The notes below the pieces were generated by a model. It made no database searches and was not told the origin of the DNA. It saw only the letters and a program-made list of their open reading frames with translations. Positions 1-14,872 of a DNA stretch of 15,881 nucleotides are shown here, piece by piece. The first letter of the stretch is position 1, and each line of letters opens with the position of its first letter. A program made the translations under genes and the position numbers. Source of the stretch: Clostridia bacterium (GTDB taxonomy: Bacteria > Bacillota > Clostridia > Christensenellales > Aristaeellaceae); the NCBI GenBank assembly GCA_045599485.1, contig JAZRWA010000024.1, positions 1 through 15,881 on the forward strand, read 5' to 3'.

Positions 1-2876
1 TCCTTCAAAGCCGTCTCGTGCGCCAGGCGGGTCACGCTTGTCTTTTGCCGGTGATGCAGCTTTGCGGATGGGTGCATACGGCGCAAAAACTATTCGTTAA
101 AGTCAGTATCCAAGGCAGGAAGCACAACAGGATGGTCACCGGGCAGCTCTTGATGGTATTCGCTTTCATCGTGAAAACGCACGTCCCACAGGCTGCCGTT
201 GAGGGCGGTGTACAGCTGATCGCGGTTGTCGGTCAGTGCGGGCTCGATGGCCTGTCCCACCCATTCCAGCATGCTGGTGGCACAGCCGCTGGCATAATCG
301 CCGGGCGGCAGGCGCCATTTTTTGCGGGCGCTGTCCAGCGACTTGGGGCTGGCCAATAGGATAAGGCGGTCGCGGGCGCGTGTCATGGCCACATAGAGCA
401 GGCGGGCTTCCTCGGCGCGGTCCTCACGGGCGGCACGCTCGGCAATGGCACGGCCGCCCAGCGTCTGGTCGGCAACACGTTCTTCGGCATCCACCCATTT
501 GAGGGAAAGCCCCAGCTGCTGATCGATGCGCAGCGTATCGCCGCTGCGCGCGCCGCGGAAGGCTCTGGCCATTTCCATGACAAACACCACGGGGAATTCC
601 AGTCCCTTGGTTTTGTGGATGGTCATGATGCGAACCACATCGTCCTTTTCGCTCAGCTCTTTGGCGGTCGTTTTATCCGAAGAATGCAGGGCGGCCTCGG
701 AATTGCGCAGAAAATCAAACAGGGAATAGCGTGCCCCCTCATCCTGTGCCCTTTCACACAACAGGCGCAGGTTCGCCTGACGGATGCGGCCGTCCCTTTC
801 GGCCCCGGCGAGGGCGTAAATACCCGTTTCGCGCAGCAAATGGCGCAAAAGGGCGTCCACCGTCATCTGGTCGGACAGAAAACGCCATCGATCCAGTGTG
901 TCCAGCACGTGGGCGATGTCGGGCTCAGTCTCGCGCAGGGCAAAGATGCCTTCGTACAAATGGGCATATTTTGCGCAATTCTGGCTGATTTCCGCCAATC
1001 TTTCGGAAGAAAAGCCAAAGCAGGGCGTACGCAGGGCGGCAAGCAGCGGCAGATCCTGATAGGGGTTATCCAGCACGCGGATGAGGTTGACCATGTCCTC
1101 CACCTCGCGCTGCTCGTAAAAGCTGGCGTCGGCATCGCTGAAGCAGGGAATGCCCTCGTTTTGCAGGATGCGGGCAATGGTCTCACTGCGGCCGCTGGCC
1201 TGACGGACCAGCAGAACAAAATCACGCCACTGCAGCTTGCGGTTTTGATACGGCTGCCCCACCAGCTGCTTGATGCGGCGCGCCGCCTGCTGTGCCTCGT
1301 ACATCCAGCCGCGGGTCAGCTCTTCGTTTTCGGCGGAGTCCTCGGAGGGCTTTTCTTCCCCATCCTTCTTTTTGACACCACCGATGAGGTGCAATTCGAC
1401 CGCGGGGCCCATTTCAGCGTCGCTGCGGGCGTTCAGCTCGGCATCCTTGTCATAATCCAGCTCAGCACTGCGCAGCGAGGCATCGGGTGTACCGGTTTTG
1501 CGCATGGCGCGCTTGAACACGCAGTTGACGGCATCCAGTATGTTTTTGTTGGAACGGAAGTTCTGGGACAGCACGATCTTACGCTCGGTGCCGTCCGCTT
1601 CCTTGCTGAAGCTTTCGTATTTGCCCAAAAACAGCGAGGGATCGGCCTGACGGAAGCGATAAATGGATTGTTTGACATCGCCGACCATAAACAGGCGGTT
1701 GCTTTCGGTATGGATCATGCGGACGATGCCTTCTTCAATGCCGGACACGTCCTGATATTCATCCACAAAGATCGCGTCATAGGAGGCGGCGACCTCGGCA
1801 CGGACACGGTCATCCTTCAATGCTTCGATGCACAGATGCTCAAGATCGTTATAATCCATCAGACCGCGCTGACGCTTGAACGCGGCATAGCGATCGGCAT
1901 AGTTGTGCACCAGACGGCACAGGGCGTTGGCCGGGGCCACGGTATCGGCGATACGGGATGTTTCCGACGCCAGATCATAGGAGACCAGCGCTTGCGCCTT
2001 TTTGAAGCAGTCCTTGGCTTCCTCACGAAAATCGGTATAGATCTGTTTGGCGGCAGGGTCGGGGGCGTTTTTCTTGGTAGCACGGGTCAGCGTGGCAAAC
2101 TTCAGCTCCTGGATGCTGTTCATGGCGCGCACGGACGCCATTGCTTCACTGATCAGGTCAAAATCCGCTTTGCAGCTGTCGGTGTACAGGGCAAGACTTG
2201 GATGGATCGCCAGCTGCGCTTCCATCTGCTCGATATAGGCGCGCGCGCCCTCCAGCTGCATCAGCGCTTCCTTGGCAAAGATCAGCTGCAGCGAGCGGAG
2301 AGAGGCAGGGTCGGTGGACGGCTTGTGCGTGTCGAGCCATTCCCACGGCTCCGGCTGCATCATGATAAAGCCGTACAGCTTTTCCGCCATATCGACGATC
2401 TCTTCATCCTCAAACTGCGCACGCAGCAAGCGATCTTCCTCCTAAGAAGAAGCACACATCTGCTCCACGGCTTCGCTCAGGGCTCGCAGGCGCAGAGGCG
2501 CCAATTGCGGGTCGGAGCCGATGCGGGCGTTGGGGTCGGCTCCGCACGCCTGAAAGTGCGTTTTGATGACATTGTGGCAAAAGACGTGCAGGGTGCTGAT
2601 CTGCGCGCGCTTCAAGGAGCGAAGCTGCTCCCGCATATGACGGTTCTAAGCGGCTTCTGCATCCAGAGCCCGTTCCATTTTGTCACGGAGCTCGGCGGCC
2701 GCGGCGCGTGTAAAGGTAATGATGAGAAAACGGGTCACTTCGCCGCCCGCGCGCAAAAGGCGCAGCACGTGCTCGATCAATACTGTGGATTTACCGCTGC
2801 CTGCGGCCGCGCTGACCAGCGTATCGTGGTTATCCGCTTCAATGGCCTTCAGCTGATCTTCTGTCCAAACGCGCAC
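1..2876 (-). CDS. addA: AddA/RecB-type UvrD-family (SF1) ATP-dependent helicase-nuclease. The 3' end runs off the window. The frame carries three in-frame TAG codons (2646-2648, 2442-2444, 90-92).
   Basis: Track ORFs 2646..2945, 2442..2636 and 90..2429 share one minus-strand frame (2945-2636=309 and 2636-2429=207, both multiples of 3). They are separated only by single TAG codons (plus-strand cta). The frame stays open past a third TAG at 90-92 for 29 more codons to the window edge (FLRRMHPSAKLHHRQKTSVTRLAHETALK). SF1 motifs occur in order across the pieces: Walker A AAAGSGKST (piece 1); ISTLHVFC (piece 2); VDEYQD, MVGDVKQSIYRFR, QNFRS, MTIHKTKGLEFPVVF and LYVAMTRARDRL (piece 3). The layout, and the K-x-S-V-T motif after the third TAG, resemble B. 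subtilis AddA as I recall it. The likely start is GTG at 2876 (MRVWTEDQLKAI), 6 nt after GGAGGG (2883-2888). The MFHVKH extension in the track is translation of the parS palindromes. No addB-like gene lies upstream. Confidence 0.8.
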
Positions 2877-2891
2877 AATGATCCCTCCGAT

Positions 2892-2907
2892 TGTTTCACG
2901 TGAAACA
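2892..2907. promoter_or_regulatory. parS: parS site (ParB/Spo0J centromere-like binding site), copy 1
   Basis: Perfect 16-bp palindrome TGTTTCACGTGAAACA, extending to the 18-bp palindrome TTGTTTCACGTGAAACAA at 2891-2908. It matches the Firmicutes parS consensus tGTTNCACGTGAAACa. It lies in the intergenic region between addA and csoR. Confidence 0.8.
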
Positions 2908-2928
2908 ATGGCCTTATGCAAACCGCAA

Positions 2929-2944
2929 TGTTTCACGTGAAACA
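2929..2944. promoter_or_regulatory. parS: parS site (ParB/Spo0J binding site), copy 2
   Basis: Second perfect TGTTTCACGTGAAACA, within the 18-bp palindrome ATGTTTCACGTGAAACAT at 2928-2945. It lies 37 bp (start to start) from copy 1. Confidence 0.8.
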
Positions 2945-2963
2945 TTTTTCACGCAAATCGAAT

Positions 2964-3002
2964 GTTATATAATAGGATATAACTGTTTCAACAAAATGTC
3001 AA
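2964..3002 (-). promoter_or_regulatory. Candidate sigma-A promoter(s) driving addA, upstream of both parS sites
   Basis: Two candidates on the minus strand in an AT-rich tract. One is TTGAAA (2986-2991), 16 nt, TATAAC (2964-2969). The other is TTGACA (2997-3002), 17 nt, TATCCT. Either would place the parS pair in the addA 5' leader. Sequence match only. Confidence 0.3.
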
Positions 3003-3008
3003 CAAGGC

Positions 3009-3037
3009 TTGACAAATACGGGGGTGGGGTATAGAAT
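3009..3037 (+). promoter_or_regulatory. csoR promoter
   Basis: TTGACA (3009-3014), 17-nt spacer, TAGAAT (3032-3037), about 33 nt upstream of the csoR ATG. Confidence 0.6.
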
Positions 3038-3066
3038 GGACATCGAAAACATACCCCCGGGAGGTA
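3016..3066 (+). promoter_or_regulatory. Two candidate CsoR operator boxes (G/C-tract pseudo-palindromes flanked by ATAC/GTAT)
   Basis: Box 1 is ATACGGGGGTGGGGTAT (3016-3032) and fills the -35/-10 spacer. Box 2 is ATACCCCCGGGAGGTA (3051-3066); TACCCCCGGGAGGTA matches its own reverse complement at 12 of 15 positions, and it overlaps the RBS. Both resemble the TACCC-N-GGGGTA type CsoR operators known from Bacillus, Listeria and Staphylococcus. This is an inference from resemblance. Confidence 0.4.
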
Positions 3067-3069
3067 AAG

Positions 3070-3375
3070 ATGAAAATGAAAGAATGCTGCTGCGCGGCAC
3101 GCACCACCGAGCGTGACGCTGCCGAAAAAAAGAAGCTGCTGGACCGCCTCAGCCGTATTGAAGGTCAGATCCGCGGCATCCGCGCCATGCTGGAAAAGGA
3201 TGCCTATTGCGCCGATGTGTTGACCCAGTCGGCCGCGGCCCGGTCGGCGCTGGATGCCTTCAATCGGCAGGTGCTCAGCCGCCACATCCATACCTGCGTG
3301 ATGCAGGACATGGCCGAGGGCAAGGCGGACGCGCCCGATGAATTGTGCGAACTGATCCTGAAGTTGGTCAAATAA
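3070..3375 (+). CDS. csoR: CsoR-family copper-sensing transcriptional repressor
   Basis: The 101-aa product carries the DUF156/CsoR core LLDRLSRIEGQIRGIRAML. The C-H-C Cu(I) ligand pattern is present (YCADVL ... HIHTC). GGAGG lies 6 nt upstream of the ATG. The stop is TAA. The N-terminal tail contains ECCC. Confidence 0.9.
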   Translation: MKMKECCCAARTTERDAAEKKKLLDRLSRIEGQIRGIRAMLEKDAYCADVLTQSAAARSALDAFNRQVLSRHIHTCVMQDMAEGKADAPDELCELILKLVK

Positions 3376-3394
3376 TGTATAAAATGGTAAATAC

Positions 3395-3423
3395 TTGACA
3401 ATTACAAACATTGTGTCTATAAT
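3395..3423 (+). promoter_or_regulatory. Consensus promoter immediately upstream of copA
   Basis: TTGACA (3395-3400), 17 nt, TATAAT (3418-3423). The spacer contains the small palindrome ACAA-N3-TTGT. No terminator lies between csoR and copA. Confidence 0.6.
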
Positions 3424-3441
3424 GAAAGAAAGAGGCAAACA

Positions 3442-5940
3442 ATGAAGCAATATCATGTAACGGGGATGAGCTGTGCCGCCTGCTCCGCCCGCGTGGAAAA
3501 AGCGGTCAAGGGCGTGCCCGGGGTGACGGAATGTGCTGTCAGCCTGCTGACCAACTCCATGGGCGTGGAAGGAACCGCCTCAGACGGCGACATCATCCGT
3601 GCGGTGACGGAGGCGGGCTACGGCTGCAGCCCCAAGGACGGAGGCAGTACCGCAAAAAGCGCCGCGTCCTCCGTGGATGAACTGACCGATACCGAAACGC
3701 CGAAAATGATCCGGCGTTTGATCGCCAGCCTGTGCCTGCTGCTGCCGCTGATGTATGTTTCCATGGGCGGCATGATGTGGGGCTGGCCTGTTCCCTCCCT
3801 GTTTGCGGGCAACGGCCTTGCCGTTGGCATTTATGAAATGCTTCTGGCAGGTCTGGTCATGGTCATCAACCAGAAGTTTTTTATCAGCGGCTTCAAGGGA
3901 CTGATCCACAAAGCCCCCAACATGGATACACTGGTGGCCATGGGCTCGTTTGCCTCGTTTGCGTGGTCGGTGGTGACGCTCTTCCGCATGACGCTGCCGG
4001 GCGCGATGCCGATGCATCTGCTGCACGACCTGTATTTTGAGTCGGCGGCCATGATCCTGACCCTCATCACCGTGGGCAAAACGCTGGAAGCGCGCAGCAA
4101 GGGCAAGACGACGGACGCGCTCAAGAGCCTGATGAAGCTCTCTCCCCGCACCGCGACCCTGGAAAGGGACGGAAAACAGGTGACGGTGCCCATTGAAGAG
4201 GTGCGCCCCGGCGATATCTTTGTATTGAAGCCCGGCGACAGCGTGCCGGTGGACGGCGTGATCGTGGAGGGCAGCGGCTCCCTCAATGAAAGCGCGCTGA
4301 CGGGCGAGAGCGTGCCTGCGGACAAGACGGTGGGCGACCGTGTCAGCGCCGCCACCATCAACCTGAACGGCGCGCTGCGCTGCCGGGCCGAGCGCGTGGG
4401 TGAGGATACCACGCTGGCGCAGATCATTCGCCTCTGCTCGGATGCCGCAGCGACCAAGGCCCCCATCGCGCGGCTGGCGGACAAGGTCAGCGGTGTGTTT
4501 GTGCCCGTGGTGCTGGGCATTGCTGCGGTGACGTTTATCATATGGCTGCTGCTGGGCGAAAGCACGGGCTTTGCGCTGGCAAGAGGCATCAGCGTGCTGG
4601 TCATCTCCTGCCCCTGTGCGCTGGGCCTGGCAACGCCGGTCGCTATCATGGCGGGCAGCGGCGTGGGTGCCAGGAACGGCATTCTGTTCAAGACCGCGGC
4701 CTCGCTGGAGCGGGCGGGACGGACGCGCGTGGCGGCGCTGGACAAGACCGGCACCATCACCGAGGGCGTGATGAGCGTGACCGATGTGCTGCCCGAAAAC
4801 GGCAGCGAGGAGGCGCTTTTGAAGCTGGCGGCCTCTTTGGAGGCGCGCAGTGAGCATCCCGTGGGCCGCGCCGTTGTAAAAGAGGCCGAAAAACGCGGCA
4901 TCATGGCCGAAAGCGTGACCGATTTTGCCGCGCTGCCGGGCAAGGGACTGATGGCGCGCCACGCCGGCGGCAAGCTGGTGGGCGGCAGCGTCAGCTACAT
5001 TGCGGAAGTGACCGAGCTGCCCGGGAACGTGAAAAAACAGGCGGAAAGGCTCTCTGACGAGGGCAAAACGCCGCTGTGCTTTGCCTTGGAGGATCGCTAC
5101 ATCGGCATGATCGCTGTGCGGGATACCCTCAAGAGCGACAGCGCGGAGGCCATCAAACAGCTGAAAAACATGGGCGTGCGCGTGGTGATGATCACGGGCG
5201 ACAATGCCCGCACGGCGGCCGCCATGGCCAAAGCCGCGGGGGTGGACGAGGTGCTTTCCGGTGTGCTGCCCGACGGCAAGGAAGCCGCCGTGCGGAGCCT
5301 CAAAAAGTACGGCCCTGTCATGATGGTGGGCGACGGCATCAACGATGCCCCCGCCCTGATCAGCGCCGATGTGGGCGCCGCCATTGGCGCGGGCACCGAT
5401 GTGGCCATTGACGCCGCCGATATCGTACTGATGAAGAGCAGCCTCAGCGATGTGGCGGCGGCCATCCGCCTGTCCCGCGCGACGCTGACCAACATCCGCG
5501 AGAACCTTTTCTGGGCGTTTTTCTACAACGCGGTGTGCATTCCGCTGGCCGCCGGTGCGTTTATCCATTGGACGGGCTGGCAGATGAGCCCCATGCTGGG
5601 CGCTGCCGCCATGAGCCTTTCCAGCTTCTGCGTGGTGAGCAATGCCCTGCGCCTCAACCTGATCGATATTCATTCCCCCAGGCATGATCACCGTCTGAAG
5701 GGCAAGGCGCCTCAAACGACCGTGCTGGAGCTGGAAGTGGAGGGCATGATGTGCCACCACTGCGAGCGGGCGGTATCCGAAGCGCTGTCGGCGATCGACG
5801 GCGTGGTGGACGCCTCCGCCGATTTTGAGACCGGTAAGGTCCTGCTGACCTGCGTAAAACCCATTCCGGAGCAGGTGCTCCGCCAAGCCATAGAGGAGGC
5901 GGATTATGCCCTGCTGTCCGTAAAAGAACAGGAGAAATAA
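3442..5940 (+). CDS. copA: Copper-translocating P1B-type ATPase with N-terminal and C-terminal HMA metal-binding domains
   Basis: The 832-aa product has an N-terminal HMA domain (GMSCAACSARVE), the TGES motif (LTGESVP), the transmembrane CPC motif (SCPCALGLATP), DKTGTIT, MITGDN and VGDGINDAP. A second HMA domain sits at the C-terminus (VEGMMCHHCERAV). AAGAGG RBS. The stop is TAA. Confidence 0.95.
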   Translation: MKQYHVTGMSCAACSARVEKAVKGVPGVTECAVSLLTNSMGVEGTASDGDIIRAVTEAGYGCSPKDGGSTAKSAASSVDELTDTETPKMIRRLIASLCLLLPLMYVSMGGMMWGWPVPSLFAGNGLAVGIYEMLLAGLVMVINQKFFISGFKGLIHKAPNMDTLVAMGSFASFAWSVVTLFRMTLPGAMPMHLLHDLYFESAAMILTLITVGKTLEARSKGKTTDALKSLMKLSPRTATLERDGKQVTVPIEEVRPGDIFVLKPGDSVPVDGVIVEGSGSLNESALTGESVPADKTVGDRVSAATINLNGALRCRAERVGEDTTLAQIIRLCSDAAATKAPIARLADKVSGVFVPVVLGIAAVTFIIWLLLGESTGFALARGISVLVISCPCALGLATPVAIMAGSGVGARNGILFKTAASLERAGRTRVAALDKTGTITEGVMSVTDVLPENGSEEALLKLAASLEARSEHPVGRAVVKEAEKRGIMAESVTDFAALPGKGLMARHAGGKLVGGSVSYIAEVTELPGNVKKQAERLSDEGKTPLCFALEDRYIGMIAVRDTLKSDSAEAIKQLKNMGVRVVMITGDNARTAAAMAKAAGVDEVLSGVLPDGKEAAVRSLKKYGPVMMVGDGINDAPALISADVGAAIGAGTDVAIDAADIVLMKSSLSDVAAAIRLSRATLTNIRENLFWAFFYNAVCIPLAAGAFIHWTGWQMSPMLGAAAMSLSSFCVVSNALRLNLIDIHSPRHDHRLKGKAPQTTVLELEVEGMMCHHCERAVSEALSAIDGVVDASADFETGKVLLTCVKPIPEQVLRQAIEEADYALLSVKEQEK

Positions 5941-5943
5941 ACC

Positions 5944-6702
5944 ATGAACATGAATCAGCGCCGCGAAAGGATCGTGCAGCTTGTCAACGGCGGGGGCTCG
6001 GTGAGCTTTTCCACCCTGAAAAAGGAGTTTCCTCAGATATCGGAAATGACCCTGCGGCGCGATCTGGAGTATCTGGATCAGAACAGGCTGCTGATCCGCA
6101 CGCATGGCGGCGCGCGCAGTGTGGAGGTGCTGGTGGGCACGGATGACCTTTTGCCCCGCCGTACACAGCGCAACGCGCAGGAAAAGCAGCAGATCGCCGT
6201 CAAGGCGGCGCAGCTGCTGCAGGCGAACACGACGGTGTTCCTCGATTCCGGCTCCACCTGCACCGAACTGGCCCGGGTGTTTCCCGATGGACCGTACATG
6301 ATCTTTACCACCTCGGTGGGCTGCGCGGTCGATCTGGCGCGGCTGCAGCAGCCGCAGGTGCATATGCTGGGCGGCGCACTCAATGCCAGCTCACTGTCCG
6401 TCAACGGCGCCGCGACGCTGGAATGGCTGAATCATATCAATTTTGACATCGCGTTCATGGGCGTGACAGGGTATATTCAAAACCGCGGCTTTACCTGCGG
6501 CAGCGAGGAGGAATGCGCCGTCAAGCGCGCCGTCATTCAGCGCGCCGACCGCGTGGTGCTTTTGATGGATGCCAGCAAGGTGGGCGTGACAAGCACGTTT
6601 ACCTTTGCGGATGCCGACCGTGTCAGCATTCTGGTGACGGACGGCCTGCTGGACGAAAAGACCGAGCGGCACTTTGAAGCCTGCGGCATACAGGTGTTGT
6701 AA
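5944..6702 (+). CDS. DeoR/GlpR-family transcriptional regulator
   Basis: The 252-aa product has an N-terminal HTH (FSTLKKEFPQISEMTLRRDLEYLDQNRLLIRTHGGA) and a C-terminal DeoR sugar-binding-type domain (VFLDSGSTCTELA, DIAFMGVTG). The ATG lies 3 nt after the copA TAA, and AGGAGA lies inside the copA 3' end. The stop is TAA. Confidence 0.85.
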   Translation: MNMNQRRERIVQLVNGGGSVSFSTLKKEFPQISEMTLRRDLEYLDQNRLLIRTHGGARSVEVLVGTDDLLPRRTQRNAQEKQQIAVKAAQLLQANTTVFLDSGSTCTELARVFPDGPYMIFTTSVGCAVDLARLQQPQVHMLGGALNASSLSVNGAATLEWLNHINFDIAFMGVTGYIQNRGFTCGSEEECAVKRAVIQRADRVVLLMDASKVGVTSTFTFADADRVSILVTDGLLDEKTERHFEACGIQVL

Positions 6703-6711
6703 GTTTTTAAG

Positions 6712-6753
6712 GGGGGAACCACGCTTTCCGAAGCCGGAAAGCATGGTTCCCCC
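6712..6753 (+). terminator. Long hairpin downstream of the DeoR-family gene; also the core of the left inverted repeat of the low-GC islet
   Basis: GGGGGAACCACGCTTTCCG (6712-6730), loop AAGC, CGGAAAGCATGGTTCCCCC (6735-6753). The stem is 19 bp with one mismatch. It is followed by TTTAACC, a second small stem CCCTT/AAGGG and then CAGTTTTTT. Confidence 0.55.
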
Positions 6754-6788
6754 TTTAACCCCTTCCGAGAAAGGGCAGTTTTTTAATA
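6712..6788. repeat. Left copy of a ~70-75 bp imperfect inverted repeat flanking the low-GC islet
   Basis: GGGGGAACCACGCTTTCCGAAGCCGGAAAGCATGGTTCCCCCTTTAACCCCTTCCGAGAAAGGGCAGTTTTTTAAT aligns with the reverse complement of 7630-7701 (GGGGCGACCACGCTTTCAGAGCCTGAAAGCATGGTCGCCCCAAACCCCACCCGAGAAAGGGCTGTTTTAAT). By hand alignment this is roughly 85% identity with one indel. Confidence 0.7.
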
Positions 6789-6799
6789 TGGTATAATAA

Positions 6800-6846
6800 C
6801 ACCCCTGCATGTTTGGAAGATGATAGTCAACCATGATGCAGGGGTG
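6800..6846 (-). terminator. Hairpin downstream of the low-GC ORF
   Basis: CACCCCTGCAT (6800-6810) pairs with ATGCAGGGGTG (6836-6846): an 11-bp stem with a 25-nt loop. On the minus strand it is followed by TTATTATACCATATTAAAAAA. The large loop makes it an atypical intrinsic terminator. Confidence 0.4.
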
Positions 6847-6865
6847 TGTTTGGTCCTATTATTGA

Positions 6866-7513
6866 TTAATCCCATGTTATATGCATATACTTTTCAGTTG
6901 ACTCAAGGTAACGTTTAGCTCCTATCAGATATCCCAAATCATGCAGCCGCTTTCTTTGCATTTCAGTTTGAGCGGTCATGGTATGCACAAACATCGTTTC
7001 ATCGGGGATATATAATCCTCCGTATGTTGCGATTTGCAGTATTGGCAAGTGATATTTGTCTGAATACCCAATGTATTCGCCGTAGACTTCAACCGGAATG
7101 TTTTCAAATCCGTCAAACACAGTTTGATTTTTTTCATATCCCGGATTACTTCCCACAAAGATACCGTTTTGCTTCAGAGCGTAAATAACAATCCATTCAT
7201 TATTGTTTTCGTCGGTGATGCGAAATGCAAAAAGATCATCGATTCTAAAGTACTGAGTTATGGAACCATAAATTGCAATTAACCGTTCTTCAAAACGATC
7301 GTTCCAGTTATCAAAGTAGGTTTCATAATCAACGTGCATAAATGGAATAATGCTTTCACCACGCTGGGCTTTATCGATGATTGCCTGAGCTTCTGAGGGA
7401 TTATATCCCAATGCAAGCATTTTGCCGTAATTCAACGTAACTGTGCTTTCACTGTCAGCCAAACAATTTGAGACGAGCAGAAAGCAGATGATGGTCAACA
7501 GAACTTTCTTCAT
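6866..7513 (-). CDS. Hypothetical secreted protein encoded in a low-GC islet; no family recognised
   Basis: Track ORF 6866..7528. The preferred start is the second ATG (7513, MKKVLLTIICFLLVSNCLADS), with GGAGG 8 nt upstream. The N-terminus is a typical signal peptide. Sampled 60-nt lines inside are 37-43% GC, against about 65-68% in the flanks. The stop is TAA. Confidence 0.65.
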   Translation of the reverse strand: MKKVLLTIICFLLVSNCLADSESTVTLNYGKMLALGYNPSEAQAIIDKAQRGESIIPFMHVDYETYFDNWNDRFEERLIAIYGSITQYFRIDDLFAFRITDENNNEWIVIYALKQNGIFVGSNPGYEKNQTVFDGFENIPVEVYGEYIGYSDKYHLPILQIATYGGLYIPDETMFVHTMTAQTEMQRKRLHDLGYLIGAKRYLESTEKYMHITWD

Positions 7514-7629
7514 AGTAAAAACCTCCATCGCATTACGAGACTAATAAATCAGTTCGTCAAAAATGCAACTATTCCTTCTGCACAAACAAAGTTGGTGATA
7601 GTTTTTTGCGCGTGTCTGAGAAGTTATTA

Positions 7630-7701
7630 GATTAAAACAGCCCTTTCTCGGGTGGGGTTTGGGGCGACCATGCTTTCAGGCTCTGAAAGCGTGGTCGCCC
7701 C
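7630..7701. repeat. Right copy of the inverted repeat flanking the low-GC islet; contains the hairpin that would terminate the EamA gene
   Basis: Hairpin GGGGCGACCATGCTTTCAG (7661-7679), loop GCT, CTGAAAGCGTGGTCGCCCC (7683-7701). It is preceded by AAAACAGCCCTTTCTCGGGTGGGGTTT. The reverse complement matches 6712-6788. Confidence 0.7.
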
Positions 7702-7712
7702 AACACAGTCCT

Positions 7713-8576
7713 TTACCCCCGTCCGCGCCCTTCCGCGAGGGCGGCGGAGGCAATAATGAGCACCGAGCCAATCATGGCGGGCACCGTCAGCACCTCGCCG
7801 AGGAACAGCGCGGACAGCAGCAGCGCCGATACGGGATCGATGTAGCTGAGCACCGCCGCCGAAAAGGCGGGAATGCGCTGCAGACCGCCAAAGTACAGCA
7901 CATACGCCAGTCCCGTGTGCACCAGTCCTGCGGTGAGCAGCAGCAGGATGCTTCCGCCATTCAGCTGCGGCAGGGCAAAGCCGCCCGTCAGCAGCAGGTA
8001 GGGCACCATGGCGCAGGCCGCGCCGAGCAATTGCCAGAAGGTCTTTTCATAGGGGTCGGGCATGGGCAGCAGCTTGTTGCAAACGACCACGAAGGCATAG
8101 AACACGGCGGCGGCAAGACCCAGCAGAATGCCCGTCTGCCCCGCGGCGGCGCCCTCGGTCACGCCCGAGACCAGCACCATGCCGAGGACGGCGGCTGCTG
8201 CGCACAGCGCCTTGCGCAAGGTCAGGTGCTCCCTGAACAAAACAGGCGACACCAGAATGATAATGACCGGCTGCATATAATAGCACAGCGTGGCGGTGGA
8301 GACCGAGGTGTAATTGTACGCCTCAAACAGCAATATCCAGTTGACGCCCATCACGGCGCCGATGCCGAGCAGCCCCAGCACCTTTTTGTGCCCGATACCG
8401 TGAAACAGCCTGCGCCCGCTGAAGCGCGCAAACAGCAGGATAAACAGCGCGCCGAGGCCTCCGCGCACAAAGGCGAGCAGCCCCGAGGGCACGGGCAGCG
8501 CCCTGCGCAGCAGCCCCACCGTGCCGAAGATGAGCATGGAAGCGATAAAGGCGGCATAGGCCGCGTGCTTTTTCAT
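7713..8576 (-). CDS. EamA/DMT-superfamily permease (10-TM drug/metabolite transporter)
   Basis: The 287-aa product is highly hydrophobic and shows the duplicated EamA-like architecture (FGTVGLLRRAL... and ...LSYIDPVSALLLSALFLGE). The stop is TAA. Confidence 0.8.
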   Translation of the reverse strand: MKKHAAYAAFIASMLIFGTVGLLRRALPVPSGLLAFVRGGLGALFILLFARFSGRRLFHGIGHKKVLGLLGIGAVMGVNWILLFEAYNYTSVSTATLCYYMQPVIIILVSPVLFREHLTLRKALCAAAAVLGMVLVSGVTEGAAAGQTGILLGLAAAVFYAFVVVCNKLLPMPDPYEKTFWQLLGAACAMVPYLLLTGGFALPQLNGGSILLLLTAGLVHTGLAYVLYFGGLQRIPAFSAAVLSYIDPVSALLLSALFLGEVLTVPAMIGSVLIIASAALAEGRGRG

Positions 8577-8599
8577 GGCAACCGATCCTTTCAGCTTTG

Positions 8600-8636
8600 A
8601 AAAACCGCCGTCCGCAAGGGACGGCGGCAGTTTTTT
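8600..8636 (-). terminator. Rho-independent (bidirectional-looking) terminator after the DUF362 gene
   Basis: CCGCCGTCC (8605-8613), loop GCAAG, GGACGGCGG (8619-8627). A-run 8600-8604 lies on one side (a U-tract on the minus strand) and TTTTTT 8631-8636 lies on the other. Confidence 0.7.
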
Positions 8637-8646
8637 GCGGCTTGGA

Positions 8647-9750
8647 TTACTGCATTTCGACCAGGTCGTAGGCGCGGGAGCCGAGACCGATCTTTTCGGC
8701 CTGATCCAGCACGGCGGCGCCGTCGGTATCGGGGTGCAGCATGGAAGCGTGATCGCCGGGGGTGCGCATGCCGCGGGTGTAGAGCAGGCTGTTGTGCTGG
8801 GGCATCATGCTGTTGACCTTGTCCAGCGCGGCCTGATCGATGGCGACGGGGTCGAAGGAGGCGAACATGCCCACATCCTCAATGACGGGGGTGTCGTTGA
8901 TGTTGTAGCAGTCGCAGTAGGGAGAGATGTCACAGGCGAGGGTGATATGGAAGCACTCACGGCCGCGGACCACGGCGGCGGTGTATTCGGCGATCTTGCG
9001 GGAAAGGATCTCGTTGGCGCGGTCATCCATGGGATGCACGCACTTGACGGGGCACTTTTCGATGCAGCGGCCGCAGCCGGCGCACTTGGTGGCATCGACA
9101 TAGGCGGTGCCGTTGACGGCGATGGCGCCGTGGGCGCAGAAGGTGGTGCAGGTGCCGCAGCCCACGCACTGGGAGGCATCCACCACGGGCTTTTCGCTGG
9201 CGTGCATATCCTTTTTGCCCTTGCGGCTGCCGCAGCCCATGCCCAGGTTTTTGAGCGCGCCGCCAAAGCCGGCGGCTTCGTGGAATTTGAAATGGTTGAG
9301 GGAGATGACGATATCGGCATCCATCACGGCGCGGCCGATGTAGGCATTCTGCACATACTCGCCGTTGACGGGCACGGCCACCTCGTCATCGCCCTTGAGG
9401 CCATCGGCAATAATGACATGGCAGCCGGTGGCGAAGGGGTTGAAGCCGTTCTGATAGGCGGCGGACAGGTGATCGAGCGCGTTGACACGCGGGCCGGTGT
9501 ACAGCGTGTTGCAGTCGGTCAGGAAGGGCTTGCCGCCCTTGGAGGCAATATAATCACACAGGGCACGGGAATAATTGGGGCGCAGATAGGCCAGGTTGCC
9601 GGGCTCGCCAAAGTGGGTCTTGACGGCAACAAACTTGCCCTTCATATCGATCTTGTCCAGACCGGCGGTCTTGACCAGACGGATCAGTTTTTCGGTCAGG
9701 CATTCATCGCCGGGGCAGCGGAAAGAGGTAAAAACGACCTGAGAGCTCAT
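8647..9750 (-). CDS. DUF362 domain protein with an inserted 2x[4Fe-4S] ferredoxin-type module
   Basis: The 367-aa product has a DUF362-like N-terminus (KGKFVAVKTHFGEPGN, FLTDCNTLY) and two CxxCxxCxxxC(P) clusters (CVGCGTCTTFC and CAGCGRCIEKCP). GGAGGA RBS. The stop is TAA. Confidence 0.8.
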   Translation of the reverse strand: MSSQVVFTSFRCPGDECLTEKLIRLVKTAGLDKIDMKGKFVAVKTHFGEPGNLAYLRPNYSRALCDYIASKGGKPFLTDCNTLYTGPRVNALDHLSAAYQNGFNPFATGCHVIIADGLKGDDEVAVPVNGEYVQNAYIGRAVMDADIVISLNHFKFHEAAGFGGALKNLGMGCGSRKGKKDMHASEKPVVDASQCVGCGTCTTFCAHGAIAVNGTAYVDATKCAGCGRCIEKCPVKCVHPMDDRANEILSRKIAEYTAAVVRGRECFHITLACDISPYCDCYNINDTPVIEDVGMFASFDPVAIDQAALDKVNSMMPQHNSLLYTRGMRTPGDHASMLHPDTDGAAVLDQAEKIGLGSRAYDLVEMQ

Positions 9751-9784
9751 GGCTTGTTTCCTCCATAATAGATGTTCGGCAAAG

Positions 9785-9814
9785 ATTATAGCACAGGTTG
9801 GGGTAAAATGTCAA
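9785..9814 (-). promoter_or_regulatory. Promoter of the DUF362 gene
   Basis: On the minus strand: TTGACA (9809-9814), 18 nt, TATAAT (9785-9790), with an extended -10 TGC immediately upstream. Confidence 0.55.
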
Positions 9815-9840
9815 AGAACAGGCTTTGCGCGGCCCTCTGA

Positions 9841-9877
9841 CAACAAAGAAGCGGCAGGGTTTTTGACCTTGCCGCTT
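9841..9877 (-). terminator. Probable terminator downstream of hup
   Basis: Minus-strand RNA AAGCGGCAAGG-TCAAAAA-CCCTGCCGCTT (one mismatch), followed by CTTTGTTG. Confidence 0.45.
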
Positions 9878-9895
9878 TGGAAGCGTGATGGGAGA

Positions 9896-10177
9896 TCAGT
9901 CCTTGCCGTTCAGCTTGTCGCGCAGGCTGGCGGCGGGCTTGAAGGCGATGGCGCGGGAAGCGGCAATTTCGATGGCTTCGCCGGTGGAGGGGTTGCGGCC
10001 GGTGCGGGCAGCGCGCTCCTTGACCTCAAAGGTGCCGAACTTGCTGAGGGAGACCTTGCTGCCGGCGCAGACAGACTCGGCGATCAGGTCGAAAACGGCT
10101 TCCACGGCCTCTTTGGCTTCGGTGTTATTCATGCCGGTCTTTTTGGCGACGGCGGCAAACAGATCCTGCTTGTTCAT
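9896..10177 (-). CDS. hup: HU-family nucleoid-associated DNA-binding protein
   Basis: The 93-aa product MNKQDLFAAVAKKTG...FGTFEVKERAARTGRNPSTGEAIEIAASRAIAFKPAASLRDKL is a textbook HU/IHF fold sequence. GGAGGT RBS. The stop is TGA. Confidence 0.95.
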   Translation of the reverse strand: MNKQDLFAAVAKKTGMNNTEAKEAVEAVFDLIAESVCAGSKVSLSKFGTFEVKERAARTGRNPSTGEAIEIAASRAIAFKPAASLRDKLNGKD

Positions 10178-10241
10178 GGGGATACCTCCGAATAATGTAA
10201 TCGCCCGGGTGGGGCGTAGTCAGCCTTATCAAGTATACATA

Positions 10242-11531
10242 TTAATTTTCGCTTGTCAAGGCTTTTTCTGTTTCTTCTGTCCGCGAAACAAGGACAGTTA
10301 CGGCGCGCTGCAGCTCTTCCTCGGCGGACTTTCCCTCGCGGCGCAGACGGTCGACCAGCAGCAGAAGCTCCTTTTGCGGGTTGTTTTCAACAAGGTCGGC
10401 GATGTTGTCGCCGTGCGCCTGAAGCTTTTTGAGCACCTTCTCCGCCCGGAGCAGAGCGGGCAGCGACAGCGACACGGCGCGCAGCGTATCGGCAAAGCCG
10501 GCGGTGCCGCGCTCCCGCTGCTTGACCTTTTCCCAGTTGAGAAGGACCTCGTCGGCGGTGCCGCAATGCACATCGCCGAAGATGTGCTCGTGACGACGTA
10601 CCATTTTGCTGACGATGCCGCTGGTGACGTCGGACAGCTCAAAGGTGCCGTACTGCGCCCCGATATCGGACTGGAACACGATCTGCAGCAGCACATCGCC
10701 CAGCTCGTCCGCCACGTGCTCCCAATCCCGCTCACTGACCGCCTGCGAGACCTCGTAGGCTTCCTCAATCAGATAGCGGGAAAGCGTGTCATGCGTCTGC
10801 TCCCGGTCCCACGGGCAGCCGTTTTGCCCCCGCAGCAGCGCCATTACACGCACCAGATCGTAAAAATCATGGCGTTCGCGCGCCTGCACCGGGGCGGGCG
10901 GCAGGTAGAGCGCGGCGGTGTGGTCGTACTTCTTTTGACGGTCCATCTCCCACAGGGGGATGCGCACGGCTTCACGGTGCGCCCGGGACGTGGGCGGGAA
11001 GAACAACACCTCGGTCTCATCGCCGTACCACGGGGTGAGCTTCAGCTTGCATTCGCCCGCCAGATAGGGCGTGTTGAGCTCGGTGATGAGGAGCCCTCCC
11101 TGTGTGTCGGTCACCTCCAGATCGGTGGCGCTGACCACACGCATGGCCCCGCGCGCCTGCGCCGCCTGCAGCAGCGGCGCGGAAACGGGCATGCCGCCTT
11201 CGATGATGATATCGCCGGGGTGCTTTTCGCACAGCGCCTGCACGGTGGTGTCGGTCAGGGCATCCAGCACGGCATACACGGCCTTGCCGCGGGCAGCGGC
11301 CTTTTCGACGGCAGCCACGGCGGCGGCGGTGAATTCGTCAAAATCCTACGCGGACTCGTGCAGGGCATCCAGAGAGGTAAAGGCAATGCCCTGTTCGGCA
11401 AGGTACTTGCCCGCGTCGGTCAGCGCGGTGCGCAGCACCAGGCGTTTGGCGGTTTTGAGGGTATCGAGCACGCCCAGGGTGAGGTGCTCACGCGGGCCGG
11501 GGCCCAGGGAAACGACGGTCACGGAATGCAT
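10242..11531 (-). CDS. yabN: YabN-like fusion protein (N-terminal tetrapyrrole-methylase-family SAM methyltransferase domain plus MazG NTP pyrophosphohydrolase domain); contains one in-frame TAG at 11346-11348
   Basis: Track ORFs 11346..11648 (real start ATG 11531, MHSVTVVSLGPGP, RBS GAGGAGG) and 10242..11318 are in the same frame (11348-11318=30). They are joined by TAG plus 9 sense codons (...LDALHESA-TAG-DFDEFTAAAVAAVEK...). The MazG core is present downstream (GCPWDREQTH, EEAYEV, ELGDVLLQIV, RRHEHIFG). The gene order flippase-yabN-hup matches the yabM-yabN neighbourhood of Bacillus and Clostridia. The final stop is TAA. Confidence 0.85.
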
Positions 11532-11541
11532 GGGTTCCTCC

Positions 11542-13149
11542 TCAGCGTTTGACAAAGCGTCGCAGACGGCCGGGAACATCCTCGGGGCGGATGGCCTTGA
11601 TCGCAAAGGCGAGCAGCGCGTAGACGGCAATGCCTGCCAGAATGGCAACGGCCACGGCGATCAGCAGCAGGAAACGGCCGCCGGTGAGGCATTTTTCGGT
11701 AAAGAGCACGTACCAGATGACGTATACGATGGCCCCCATGGCCACGGTGGCTGCCAGCGGGCGCAGAAGGATATCGGTCACGGGGAAGCGCTTGGAAGCG
11801 TAGCGGACGACAAAATACAGGTTGGGCACCATCGACACGGTGTAGCACACCAGCGAGGCGATGGGCGCGCCGTGAATGTTGATGGAGGGCGTGCCGATGA
11901 GCAGATAGTTGAGGCCGATCTTGCAGATCACACCCGCCAGCAGCGTGTACAGCGGCAGGCGCTGCTTGCCGCAGCCGTGCAGGATACCGCTGGTGGCCTG
12001 CACCATGGTAAAGAAGAAGATGGTAAAGGCACTCATCTGCAGGATCTGCGCGCCCAGATCGAGCTGCGCGGGGGTGTATTTAGCGCTGAAGAGCAGGTAC
12101 AGGATGGGGCGGGCGAGCAGGCTCATGCCCATTGAACAGGGCATGCCCACAATGGAGGCGATGCGCATGCCGTCAATGCTCTGACGGGATACATCCTTCA
12201 TGTCATGGCGTGCCATGCCGGCGGAGATGGCGGGCACCAGATTGGTGCTCATGGCCATGGCCAGGGCGGTGGGCACGTTGATGAGCGACAGCACCACGCT
12301 GGAGTACAGACCGTAGCGCACCAGCGCCTCGGCGTGCGCCATGCCGTCGGCTTCCATCAGGTTGGTGACCATGAAGCTGTCGATCCACCCGGCCAGGGGC
12401 ACGATGCAGCTGGACAGCGTGATGGGAATGGAGATCTTGAGCAGCGTTTTGACCAGCTGGGCGGTTTCGGGCGCGGGCTCGGTGCTGTTTTGCGGTACGG
12501 CGGCAAACTCCCCGCCGGCGCGGCGGTGGGCAATGCCCATAAAGACAAGCGCGGCGCCCTCGGCCACACTGGTGCCCAGCAGCATGCCCGCGGCGCCCCC
12601 GGGCGCGCCGCCCAGGTTCATGCCCGCGACGGCCATGGGCAGGGCGACCGCCAGCTTGCCCACCTGCACGATGAGCTGGGAGATGGCGGTGGGCATCATT
12701 TTGCGATGTCCCTGCATGTAGCCGCGGTAGGCGCTCATGACGCACACCAGCAAAAGCGACGGCGCGATGGCGAGGTAGCCGATGCGGATCTCGGGCGCGC
12801 CGGCCTGATTGGACAGCCAGCCGCTGAAGATGACCAGCAGCAGCGTGGCCAGCAGGCCCAACGCTGTCAGCCCCCATGCCGCCAGCCTGAACACGCGGCG
12901 GGCGGCGGAGGGATCCTGTCGCGTGACATAGTGCGCCACCATGCGGGAGATGGCCACGGGCAGACCGGCAGAGGAGATGGTCAGCAGCAGGTTATAGCTC
13001 TGGAACACCTTGGAATACAGACCCAGCCCCTCGGCCCCGATGTAGGCGGCCAGCGGAATGCGGTAGAGCACGCCGACCACCTTGCAGATCAGCCCTGCAA
13101 GCCCCAGTATGGAGATGCCGCCGACCAGCGATTTGGTTTTTTGAGACAT
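11542..13149 (-). CDS. MOP-superfamily flippase (SpoVB/YabM/MurJ-like polysaccharide or lipid II flippase)
   Basis: Track ORF 11542..13209. The preferred start is ATG 13149 (MSQKTKSLVGGISILGLAG), with GGAGGA upstream. The roughly 535-aa polytopic membrane protein has SpoVB/MurJ-like N-terminal motifs (YRIPLAAYIGAEGLGLY, LPVAISR). The stop is TGA and overlaps the yabN RBS. Confidence 0.8.
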   Translation of the reverse strand: MSQKTKSLVGGISILGLAGLICKVVGVLYRIPLAAYIGAEGLGLYSKVFQSYNLLLTISSAGLPVAISRMVAHYVTRQDPSAARRVFRLAAWGLTALGLLATLLLVIFSGWLSNQAGAPEIRIGYLAIAPSLLLVCVMSAYRGYMQGHRKMMPTAISQLIVQVGKLAVALPMAVAGMNLGGAPGGAAGMLLGTSVAEGAALVFMGIAHRRAGGEFAAVPQNSTEPAPETAQLVKTLLKISIPITLSSCIVPLAGWIDSFMVTNLMEADGMAHAEALVRYGLYSSVVLSLINVPTALAMAMSTNLVPAISAGMARHDMKDVSRQSIDGMRIASIVGMPCSMGMSLLARPILYLLFSAKYTPAQLDLGAQILQMSAFTIFFFTMVQATSGILHGCGKQRLPLYTLLAGVICKIGLNYLLIGTPSINIHGAPIASLVCYTVSMVPNLYFVVRYASKRFPVTDILLRPLAATVAMGAIVYVIWYVLFTEKCLTGGRFLLLIAVAVAILAGIAVYALLAFAIKAIRPEDVPGRLRRFVKR

Positions 13150-13173
13150 AACGGTTCCTCCGATAAAAAGGCG

Positions 13174-13211
13174 AAAAAAACGATGCAAAGCGCTTTGAAC
13201 GGTTTGCATCG
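13174..13211 (-). terminator. Rho-independent terminator after the small membrane ORF
   Basis: Minus-strand RNA CGATGCAAA-13-nt loop-TTTGCATCG, followed by TTTTTTT (plus-strand A-run 13174-13180). Confidence 0.6.
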
Positions 13212-13230
13212 CAGGCGGTGTGTTTCGGAA

Positions 13231-13341
13231 TTACAGGATGAGGGACGCCAGCGTGGAGCCCACGATGAGCACCGCCAGAATGATACACATGACGCGCACA
13301 AAGGTGCTGACGCCCTGCTTGTTGTTCTTTTTGCCGCTCAT
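13231..13341 (-). CDS. Small (36 aa) predicted single-pass membrane protein
   Basis: MSGKKNNKQGVSTFVRVMCIILAVLIVGSTLASLIL has a basic N-terminus followed by one hydrophobic helix. GGAGG lies 9 nt upstream of the ATG, and the ATG lies 1 nt after the upstream TAA. A terminator follows. No homology is recognised. Confidence 0.45.
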   Translation of the reverse strand: MSGKKNNKQGVSTFVRVMCIILAVLIVGSTLASLIL

Positions 13342-13342
13342 G

Positions 13343-13591
13343 TTACTGCACCTCCGTCTGATAGGCTTCGATGGCGCGGGACAGCTGATCGGGGCAGGAT
13401 GTATTGCCGCGGCAGGGAATGCCGCGCAGCAGATCCTTGACCTCATCGGCCTTGCGGCCGACGACCATCTTGGCCAGGCCCAGGGTGTTGCCGCGGCAGC
13501 CGTTGTGGATGGTGCAGGCGGTGATGATGCCGTTTTCGATCTCCAGATCGATCTGGGTGGAGCAGGTGCCACGGGTTTTATACTGGAACAT
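13343..13591 (-). CDS. TIGR03905-type 4-Cys (TSCPD-like) small protein
   Basis: The 82-aa product MFQYKTRGTCSTQIDLEIENGIITACTIHNGCRGNTLGLAKMV...PCRGNTSCPDQL matches the characteristic TIGR03905 pattern. GGAGGA RBS. The stop is TAA. Confidence 0.8.
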   Translation of the reverse strand: MFQYKTRGTCSTQIDLEIENGIITACTIHNGCRGNTLGLAKMVVGRKADEVKDLLRGIPCRGNTSCPDQLSRAIEAYQTEVQ

Positions 13592-13606
13592 GAATATTTT
13601 TCCTCC

Positions 13607-14194
13607 TTATAGGCTGTGATGCGGGAAAAGAGCTTCGTAATCCTTCCTCAGGATGGCAAACAGATACACATCGCGGTACTGTCCCTTGCTGTAGACGCGG
13701 CCGCGCAGCAGCCCCTCCCGGGTCATGCCGCATTTTTCCATCACACGGCCGGAGGCGGGGTTGCGGGGATCGTGCATGGCTTCCACCCGGTTGAGACGCA
13801 GCTCTTCAAAGCTGAAGCGCAGCAGCGCGCCGAGCGCTTCGGTGGCGTAGCCGCGGTTCCATACATCCCGGGCGAGGGAATAGCCGATCTCGGCACAGTG
13901 GCTGTCGCAGTCGATGCAGCTGAAGCTGACGGTGCCAAGGACGCGGTGATCCTCCTTGCGCTCAATGGCCAGGCTGCCGGGCAGCCCCAAACGGTACTGG
14001 CGCCTGAGGCGGCGGATGTAAGCGCGCGTTTCGGCGGGCGAGGCGTGCGCCTTGAGCGGTTCAAAGCGGCTGACCTACGGATCGCCGTAGCAGCGGAACA
14101 GATCGCGGCTGTCCTGCATCGTGACGGGGCGCAGCACCAGCCGCGGCGTCTCGACCTCGGGCAGCAGGCGAAAAACACGTCGGTAATCCTGCAT
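13607..14194 (-). CDS. RimJ/RimL-like GNAT N-acetyltransferase with one in-frame TAG at 14075-14077 (codon 40)
   Basis: Hand translation from ATG 14194 (RBS AGAGG) gives MQDYRRVFRLLPEVETPRLVLRPVTMQDSRDLFRCYGDP-TAG-VSRFEPLKAHASPAETRAYIRRLRRQYRLGLPGSLAIERKEDHRVLG.... This runs in frame into track ORF 13607..13990 (14194-14077=117 and 14194-13990=204). The N-terminal piece is the canonical first strand and helix of Acetyltransf_3-type GNATs. The acetyl-CoA motif WNRGYATEA lies after the TAG. The final stop is TAA. Confidence 0.8.
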
Positions 14195-14254: not shown

Positions 14255-14872
14255 TTACAACGGGCGGGATGCCAGCACCCTTGTGGGCCGTTGTATAGTA
14301 GAAAGCCCTTCATAGGGCGCGGCGGTCTGCTGCAGGGCGCGCTGCGCCAGAAGCAGGCCCACGATGGTCTTGCTGTCGCGGATCTCTCCGTTCAGGATCA
14401 TGCCCACGGCGTCGGAAAGCGGCAGGGAGGCGATGTTCAAAAACTCGCCCTCATCGGGGTGCGTTTCGTGGGCGGTCAGCCCCGTGGCCAGATAGATGCC
14501 GATGTGTTCATCGCAAAAGCCGGGCGTGGTCAGGATATCGCTGAGCAGCGTCCAGTTTTCGGCCATGAGGCCGGTCTCCTCGCTCAATTCGCGCTTGGCG
14601 GCGTCGAGGGTGCTTTCGCCCTCCTTGTCCAGCTTGCCGGCGGGAATTTCCCACGTGAAGCGGTGATTGACCACACGGTGCTGGCGCACCAGGGTGACGC
14701 AGCCGTTTTCGTCCACGGGCACCACGGCGGCGGCGCCGTGGTGACGCACCACCTCGCGGGGGGCTGTGCTGCCGTCGGGCAGGCGCACCTGCCAGCGTTC
14801 CACGTTGATGATCTTGCCTTCAAAAATGGGTTCGGAGGAGAGAAAGACCTCCTCCAGTCTGCTGTCGTCCAT
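14255..14872 (-). CDS. nudF: Nudix hydrolase, ADP-ribose pyrophosphatase type
   Basis: The 205-aa product has the Nudix box GKLDKEGESTLDAAKRELSEETGL and a NudF-like N-terminus (EPIFEGKIINVERWQVRLPDG). GAAGGAG RBS. The stop is TAA. Confidence 0.85.
   Translation of the reverse strand: MDDSRLEEVFLSSEPIFEGKIINVERWQVRLPDGSTAPREVVRHHGAAAVVPVDENGCVTLVRQHRVVNHRFTWEIPAGKLDKEGESTLDAAKRELSEETGLMAENWTLLSDILTTPGFCDEHIGIYLATGLTAHETHPDEGEFLNIASLPLSDAVGMILNGEIRDSKTIVGLLLAQRALQQTAAPYEGLSTIQRPTRVLASRPL

Follow-up and report, generated by a model that had tools for sequence, protein, structure and literature searches.

The window analysed here is the whole of a 15,881-nucleotide (nt) stretch, positions 1 to 15,881 of contig JAZRWA010000024.1 in the Clostridia bacterium assembly GCA_045599485.1 (Aristaeellaceae), an unannotated metagenome-assembled genome (MAG). 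The window takes up essentially all of this contig (15,883 bp) and is absent from the GTDB-representative, JGI and IMG/VR collections. The features of interest are TAG codons that lie in frame within three of its genes. The DNA is about 60% GC, and genuine genes are recognisable by a GC content at the third codon position (GC3) of about 0.8. The three genes and their TAGs are as follows.

3..2876, minus strand: addA-like gene (AddAB helicase-nuclease subunit A), partial, running off the contig end, with three in-frame TAGs
2646..2648, minus strand: addA TAG a1, found in the window species only
2442..2444, minus strand: addA TAG a2, found in the window species only, inside an acidic stretch
90..92, minus strand: addA TAG a4, also TAG in a sister species
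10242..11531, minus strand: mazG/yabN-type gene, with a TP_methylase-like N-terminal domain and a MazG domain and one in-frame TAG
11346..11348, minus strand: mazG TAG, also TAG in the sister species
13607..14194, minus strand: GNAT gene, RimJ/RimL-type (Acetyltransf_3), with one in-frame TAG
14075..14077, minus strand: GNAT TAG, at the E of the 'DPEV' motif

A sequence-only reading of the window had reported these five TAGs and proposed them as candidates for sense decoding of UAG. All five were confirmed as plus-strand CTA, ie minus-strand TAG, and each is in frame with the high-GC3 reading frame of its gene. When TAG is read through, each gene forms one continuous frame, free of frameshifts and of TAA and TGA, so the observation that TAG is the only defect was correct. 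Four of the five TAGs are crossed by Pfam matches; the addA TAG at 90-92 is outside every Pfam match. The addA-like gene, whose homologues carry the name AddA and whose start could be either GTG at 2876 or ATG at 2945, matches UvrD-helicase at 5e-50 over residues 27-446, across the two N-terminal TAGs, and UvrD_C at 1e-32. The mazG/yabN-type gene matches MazG at 2e-23 and TP_methylase at 1.5e-6 over residues 4-87, across its TAG. In the GNAT gene, Acetyltransf_3 (8e-36) extends over residues 18-158 and likewise crosses the TAG. The codon is rare, with 5 occurrences among 4,847 window codons (about 1 per 1000, or 0.1%) against 285 for GAG and GAA together, and it amounts to about 1.7% of the glutamate (Glu) codons.

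The window was compared with related loci, all of them MAG or metagenome contigs. The closest belong to a sister species at about 89% nt identity and 91-93% amino acid (aa) identity to the window. It is represented by L001 and L016, from GCA_024404275.1 (JAKSQG01), a "Clostridia bacterium" MAG from horse faeces; by L006, from ENA ERZ27247129; and by L008 and L012, from Logan SRR27361835. These assemblies are 94-98% identical in nt sequence among themselves. L007 and L013 (JGI 3300020112), called the next lineage below, are at about 70% aa identity, and the further relatives, L002-L005, L014, L009 and L010, are at 55-69%.

Ten distinct in-frame TAG sites were found in five genes (addA, mazG, GNAT, spoVB and prmC) of the two species. 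Two of the five window TAGs are kept in the second, independently assembled species. The mazG TAG is at the identical codon in L001, L006 and L012, three independent sister-species assemblies, and L008 and L016 share the codon position of the addA a4 TAG and the residues on either side of it (DFNE*FLRRM, where the asterisk is the TAG). Five further TAGs occur in the sister species, in spoVB (L001, L012), in prmC (L016) and at addA a3, a5 and a6, the last two at positions beyond the end of the window. The number of TAGs per addA gene is two to four depending on the strain, with three in the partial window copy. Such recurrence bears on the suggestion that the TAGs are systematic G-to-T calls arising from sequencing, assembly or base modification. 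Every sequence does come from MAG or metagenome contigs and was judged from the consensus alone, but the TAGs recur across four unrelated projects (the window MAG, GCA_024404275.1, ERZ27247129 and SRR27361835), some of them at identical codons. By eye, no common motif surrounds the TAGs of the window, and the 138 other GAG codons of the window are unaffected. An artefact, which the sequence-only reading had listed among its alternatives, is hardly credible.

The same reading had also offered three independently decaying pseudogenes as an alternative. Nei-Gojobori estimates between the window species and the sister species gave dS of 0.3-0.6, and dN/dS of 0.01-0.31 on either side of each testable TAG. 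For addA against L008 the ratio was 0.07 overall and 0.009-0.105 for each segment between TAGs. In mazG it was 0.09-0.19 upstream of the TAG and 0.10-0.12 downstream, and in GNAT it was 0.28-0.31 downstream of the TAG; the NUDIX hydrolase gene, which is free of TAG and served for comparison, gave 0.21. No frame-breaking indel and no other type of stop was found when the TAG-bearing genes of the window were compared with those of the sister species. The genes have stayed intact, and purifying selection acts on them both upstream and downstream of their TAGs.

These values have to be set against the possibility that the TAGs are true stops, either in pseudogenes or in split genes whose pieces work separately. 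Public protein collections do hold fragments called under code 11: entries P0001, P0121, P0242 and P0379-P0382 give truncated MazG, AddA, PrmC and SpoVB proteins (355, 817, 201 and 450 aa, respectively). However, low dN/dS on both sides at such dS, with neither frameshifts nor other stops, is not what decay would leave, and the lesions are TAG at ten of ten sites rather than mixed, those of the sister species included. The split points within one gene also vary by species and strain (addA a1 and a2 as against a3 and a5), which a stable split architecture would not allow. Pseudogenes or split genes are very improbable. Because the TAGs recur in independent assemblies, dN/dS is low and frameshifts are absent, TAG is, to judge from the sequences compared, neither decay nor error.

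The codons found at the ten sites in the nearest TAG-free sequences are listed by site.

mazG TAG: carried by the window, L001, L006 and L012; GAG in the nearest TAG-free relative (L007)
GNAT TAG: carried by the window; GAG in L001, L006 and L007
spoVB codon 78 TAG: carried by L001 and L012; GAG in L006 and L007, CAG in the window
addA a3 TAG: carried by L008; GAG in the window, L016 and L013
addA a4 TAG: carried by the window, L008 and L016; GAG in L013
addA a5 TAG: carried by L008; GAA in L016
addA a6 TAG: carried by L008 and L016; GAG in L013
prmC codon 202 TAG: carried by L016; GAA in L008
addA a1 TAG: carried by the window; TCG in L008 and L016, AGC in the next lineage
addA a2 TAG: carried by the window; TTG in L008 and L016, GAT in the next lineage

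The nearest TAG-free relative has GAG or GAA at eight of the ten sites. Four sites differ among the sister-species assemblies (spoVB, addA a3, addA a5 and prmC), and all four are polymorphic for TAG and GAG or GAA. TAG behaves much as a synonymous Glu codon would if it were segregating in the species. At six of nine sites (prmC excluded) the codon of the next lineage is GAG, where 23% would be expected if TAGs arose from the eight codons one step away, each weighted by its usage (P about 0.006 for at least six).

Aligned homologues lead to the same residue. The prmC TAG falls in the "EP" motif at a column with E in 118 of 119 sequences and Q in none; the addA a3 column has E in 103 and Q in 7 of 119; and the mazG column has E in 97, D in 17 and Q in none of 120. 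In the GNAT column, that of the 'DPEV' motif, E is present in 89, D in 19 and Q in 6 of 183 aligned representatives, as would fit the remark in the sequence-only reading that the family usually has an acidic residue here. The share of E in these four Glu-dominated columns is thus 49% (GNAT), 81% (mazG), 87% (addA a3) and 99% (prmC). The addA a1 and a2 sites are in variable, in part acidic, stretches, with G 31, Q 22 and E 11 in the a1 column and D 46, T 35 and E 7 in that of a2. Summed over nine sites, the log-odds are +14.2 bits for E, +7.5 for D, -4.2 for Q and -9.4 for K, which places E over Q by about 18 bits; by our own arithmetic the prmC column would add about +3.8 bits for E and about -4.6 bits for each other residue. 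The sequence-only reading had held that the TAGs align to variable positions and that the amino acid cannot be inferred. The mazG and GNAT TAGs are in fact in Glu-dominated columns, and the columns together with the exchange with GAG and GAA do point to an amino acid. As the TAGs stand at Glu-conserved columns and are exchanged with GAG and GAA in close strains, the residue at UAG is most likely glutamate.

It has to be considered whether UAG is translated as some other residue: glutamine (Gln), through a tRNA-Gln(CUA) or near-cognate reading after loss of release factor 1 (RF1), or pyrrolysine (Pyl) used genome-wide. TAG to Gln is the sole TAG reassignment described in bacteria and phages, TAG to Pyl is genome-wide in some archaea, and some Clostridia encode the Pyl machinery. 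Two sites speak for Gln: the spoVB codon that is TAG in L001 has CAG as its window counterpart, and the addA a1 column favours Q. The remainder of the evidence is unfavourable to both residues. The summed scores for Q and for K, a crude proxy for Pyl, are negative whereas that for E is strongly positive; Q is found only 0 to 7 times in the columns where E reaches 118/119, 103/119 and 97/120; and all four sister-species polymorphisms pair TAG with GAG or GAA, none with CAG or AAG. Predicted RNA folding in the approximately 100 nt 3' of the window TAGs showed no excess over shuffled controls (z from -0.27 to +1.25). Folding no better than that of shuffled sequence implies that there is no signal of the pyrrolysine insertion sequence (PYLIS) or selenocysteine insertion sequence (SECIS) type, which counts against Pyl, and that decoding is apparently independent of context. 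No pyl genes or methylamine methyltransferases were found within the approximately 35 kb of lineage sequence, a tiny sample. The placement expected of Pyl, at unconserved positions or in methylamine methyltransferases, was considered and rejected: the TAGs are in addA, mazG, GNAT, spoVB and prmC, and four of them are at Glu-conserved positions. A residue other than Glu is unlikely.

An effect of the nucleotide at the +4 position was also considered. G follows seven of nine TAGs, but it also follows 47% of the GAG codons in the same genes, and the idea was dropped.

The use of stop codons within the lineage was tabulated next to these data. Twelve complete coding sequences (CDS) of the window were tallied, a thirteenth open reading frame (ORF) of about 35 aa being left out, and they end in TAA (10) or TGA (2), never in TAG. 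The sequence-only reading had counted 13 complete CDS with 11 TAA and 2 TGA; the absence of TAG stands, and the split was slightly off, with the HU gene among those ending in TGA. The sister-species genes likewise have no TAG terminators once the pieces split by TAG are joined.

These figures are relevant to a form of partial suppression in which RF1 is kept and a natural amber-suppressor tRNA gives moderate readthrough, so that full-length and truncated products are mixed. The rarity of TAG (about 0.1% of codons) and its polymorphism within a species would fit such a young or leaky state, and RF1 may be present. However, a readthrough of 50% per site would leave less than 13% of full-length AddA with its three sites, yet the dN/dS (omega) of addA is 0.07. 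The PrmC TAG, moreover, is at an invariant Glu, and none of the lineage genes has a TAG terminator. There is only a small chance that partial suppression is the explanation.

That UAG is translated within these genes is very likely. Our preferred interpretation is that UAG is decoded as sense throughout the lineage, ie in the window MAG and the sister species, with Glu as the most likely residue, and we give it a probability of about 0.7. The initial suggestion of UAG sense decoding therefore gains from the TAGs kept in a second species, the purifying selection and the exchange of TAG with GAG and GAA. For the strongest form of the proposal, a complete genome-wide reassignment of UAG to Glu with a Glu-accepting tRNA(CUA) and no functional RF1, the odds seem evenly balanced.

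Several considerations weigh against this interpretation. The first is that missing TAG stops, which the sequence-only reading took as the mark of an RF1-independent organism, are weak evidence and by themselves no sign of reassignment, because relatives with the standard code are likewise almost or entirely without them. There were no TAG stops among 19 called genes of L014, about 13 genes of L007 and L013, or 35 crude calls in L002-L005, and one among 15 in L009. Secondly, the addA a1 and a2 sites, with Ser and Leu codons in the sister species and variable columns, are uninformative on Glu. Thirdly, TAG use across the genome is extrapolated from two species-level lineages and five TAG-bearing genes, in approximately 35 kb of unique sequence. 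Fourthly, ARAGORN finds no tRNA, and hence none with a CUA anticodon, in the window and eight loci, and the lineage contigs covered (about 35 kb) are without tRNA genes. Rfam gave no match in the window and five related loci, and the remark that no tRNA is evident in the window was thus borne out by both programs. Fifthly, the gene order is silent on RF1. Its gene, prfA, follows prmC in many Clostridia, and it is not next to prmC in L013 or the outgroup. Finally, a CUA tRNA charged with Glu, hypothetical here, requires an adapted synthetase or tRNA, because the bacterial glutamyl-tRNA synthetase (GluRS) normally reads the tRNA anticodon.

Some observations were made in passing on the relatives and on the surroundings of prmC. 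The DNA of the relatives without in-frame TAG is 53-58% GC. A strong inverted repeat, similar to a terminator hairpin, is located 3' of prmC (L008 7148-7185; L016 1-62), and the L008 and L016 contigs, although independently assembled, both end 40-60 bp from it. This suggests that a repeat such as a ribosomal RNA or tRNA operon or an insertion sequence (IS) element adjoins the hairpin.

If the preferred interpretation is correct, UAG would be an ordinary sense codon, and no terminator, in this lineage of uncultured gut Clostridia. It would be read by a tRNA with a CUA anticodon charged with Glu, RF1 would be lost or would not compete, and termination at UAA and UGA would proceed via release factor 2 (RF2). 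Two routes to charging can be envisaged. Firmicutes lack a glutaminyl-tRNA synthetase, and, speculatively, a CUA tRNA derived from tRNA-Gln could be charged by a non-discriminating GluRS and escape amidation by GatCAB; the other route would be a tRNA-Glu(CUA) with an adapted GluRS. As to origin, the scarcity of TAG stops among the relatives suggests that the family as a whole had come close to purging them. Such avoidance of TAG would be unusual in itself, and it may have been the precondition for codon capture. The wider clade would first have purged nearly all of its TAG stops, and capture would have followed without genome reduction or AT pressure. TAG would now be drifting as a rare synonym of GAG.

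Other genes of the window, free of in-frame TAG, are as follows.

3070..9750, strand not specified for the group: csoR, copA, deoR, a hypothetical gene, eamA and DUF362, all terminating in TAA
9896..10177, minus strand: HU gene, terminating in TGA
11542..13149, minus strand: spoVB/MurJ-like flippase gene, with CAG at codon 78
14255..14872, minus strand: NUDIX hydrolase gene, terminating in TAA, the comparison gene for dN/dS

An ORF of 220 aa (6866-7528, minus strand, in the region 6777-7639) is of a different character. It is about 45% GC, with a GC3 of 0.40; it has no Pfam match, and its N-terminus is hydrophobic and by eye resembles a signal peptide. It is within an insertion of about 700 bp between eamA and deoR that the sister species does not have, and it was probably acquired horizontally. 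A second difference in content is a gene for a 205-aa histidine phosphatase (His_Phos_1) between HU and DUF362 in the sister species (L006 6068-6678), which is missing from the window (at about 9824-9834), an indel of about 610 bp. At the other end of the window, the gene at 15045-15881 (plus strand) runs off the contig end. Its product is a cell-surface protein that combines a signal peptide with tandem MucBP-type repeats. The copies of the repeat unit, '...MVTVYYVDQNYNSIA.PTT..VPYGQTVTVTPSAWDIP.GYTLQGSSQQNASYTDSAIYFVYAA', are nearly exact, and the repeats probably caused the assembly to break at this point.

A targeted, not exhaustive, literature search found no report of a bacterial UAG-to-Glu code, or of UAG as any standard amino acid in bacteria. 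All known bacterial stop-codon reassignments involve UGA (Shulgina and Eddy, PMC8629427), and Parks and colleagues (PMC13462651; gTranslate preprint) likewise describe only UGA codes in bacteria while citing a genome-wide UAG-to-Pyl code in archaea. In bacteria TAG is otherwise a stop, Pyl being reported from a small number of methylamine methyltransferases and from one L-serine dehydratase (Kivenson et al., 10.1101/2024.09.30.615893). Nor does the KACI screen, which covered about 2.7 million NCBI assemblies, describe a TAG sense code in bacteria.

One comparison is with the bacterial UGA codes, table 4 (UGA to Trp, in Mycoplasmatales, some insect endosymbionts and Eggerthellaceae) and table 25 (UGA to Gly, in Absconditabacteria and Gracilibacteria). 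In those codes, as proposed here, a stop is reassigned to a standard amino acid on the chromosome and throughout a lineage, genes appear split under table 11, and the reassignment is expected to work through a mutated tRNA anticodon and loss of the matching release factor. The differences are that the codon here is UAG and the residue most likely Glu, and that the dispensable factor would be RF1 rather than RF2; that the host DNA is about 60% GC, with ordinary gene content in the sampled contigs and none of the reduced, AT-rich look; and that the reassigned codon is still used only about once per 1000.

Code 15 gut phages (crAss-like, Lak and others), in which TAG is read as Gln, share both the codon and the habitat, the animal gut, and their Firmicutes hosts ordinarily use the standard code. 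The present DNA, however, is a segment of bacterial chromosome (addA, copA, yabN-HU-spoVB and the prmC neighbourhood), and Glu is favoured over Gln. A phage origin was considered and rejected on the chromosomal housekeeping gene content and the lack of a match in a viral contig collection (IMG/VR). Archaeal code 34 (10.1101/2024.09.30.615893) is also similar in that TAG has a sense reading, genome-wide in that case, two stop codons remain, TAG is scarce, and coding density is hardly lost under table 11, so that routine tools miss the recoding. It differs in that the present lineage belongs to the Bacteria and that its TAGs are Glu-conserved and exchanged with GAG and GAA, which is unexpected for Pyl.

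Reading of stop codons as Glu is described in eukaryotes, in lineages unrelated to that of the window. Peritrich ciliates have a UAR-to-Glu code. Such codes are nuclear, involve a changed eukaryotic release factor eRF1 and include UAA, whereas UAA is the main terminator here (10 of 12). In Blastocrithidia nonstop, a stop codon beginning with UA is also reported to be read as Glu (PMC12153298). A functional parallel would be with the RF1-free Escherichia coli strains C321.deltaA and RFzero (PMC4434889, PMC6207430), which as proposed for the present lineage have no TAG stops, a dispensable RF1 and a UAG open to a suppressor tRNA. Those strains are synthetic; in the present case a natural origin is proposed, and coding sequence has started to take up TAG.

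The truncated proteins in the public entries are a consequence of the genes having been called with table 11. Tools that predict the translation table would miss a TAG recoding of this kind, because coding density hardly changes (Parks and colleagues). In the sources consulted, bacterial reassignments to standard residues are of UGA only, and TAG is sense in phages (Gln) and archaea (Pyl). The present lineage, if the interpretation holds, would be the first case of a UAG sense code in bacteria and of a stop-to-Glu code in prokaryotes, and would add a translation table to those known. The implied charging system, which would deliver Glu while tolerating a CUA anticodon, would be relevant to genetic-code engineers. 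It would also follow that independence from RF1 arises in nature and not only in engineered E. coli. For the lineage itself, it would mean that a young codon capture is taking place in a GC-rich and apparently non-reduced genome, and, because TAG remains rare and has not ceased to be polymorphic with GAG, one that could be watched in progress.

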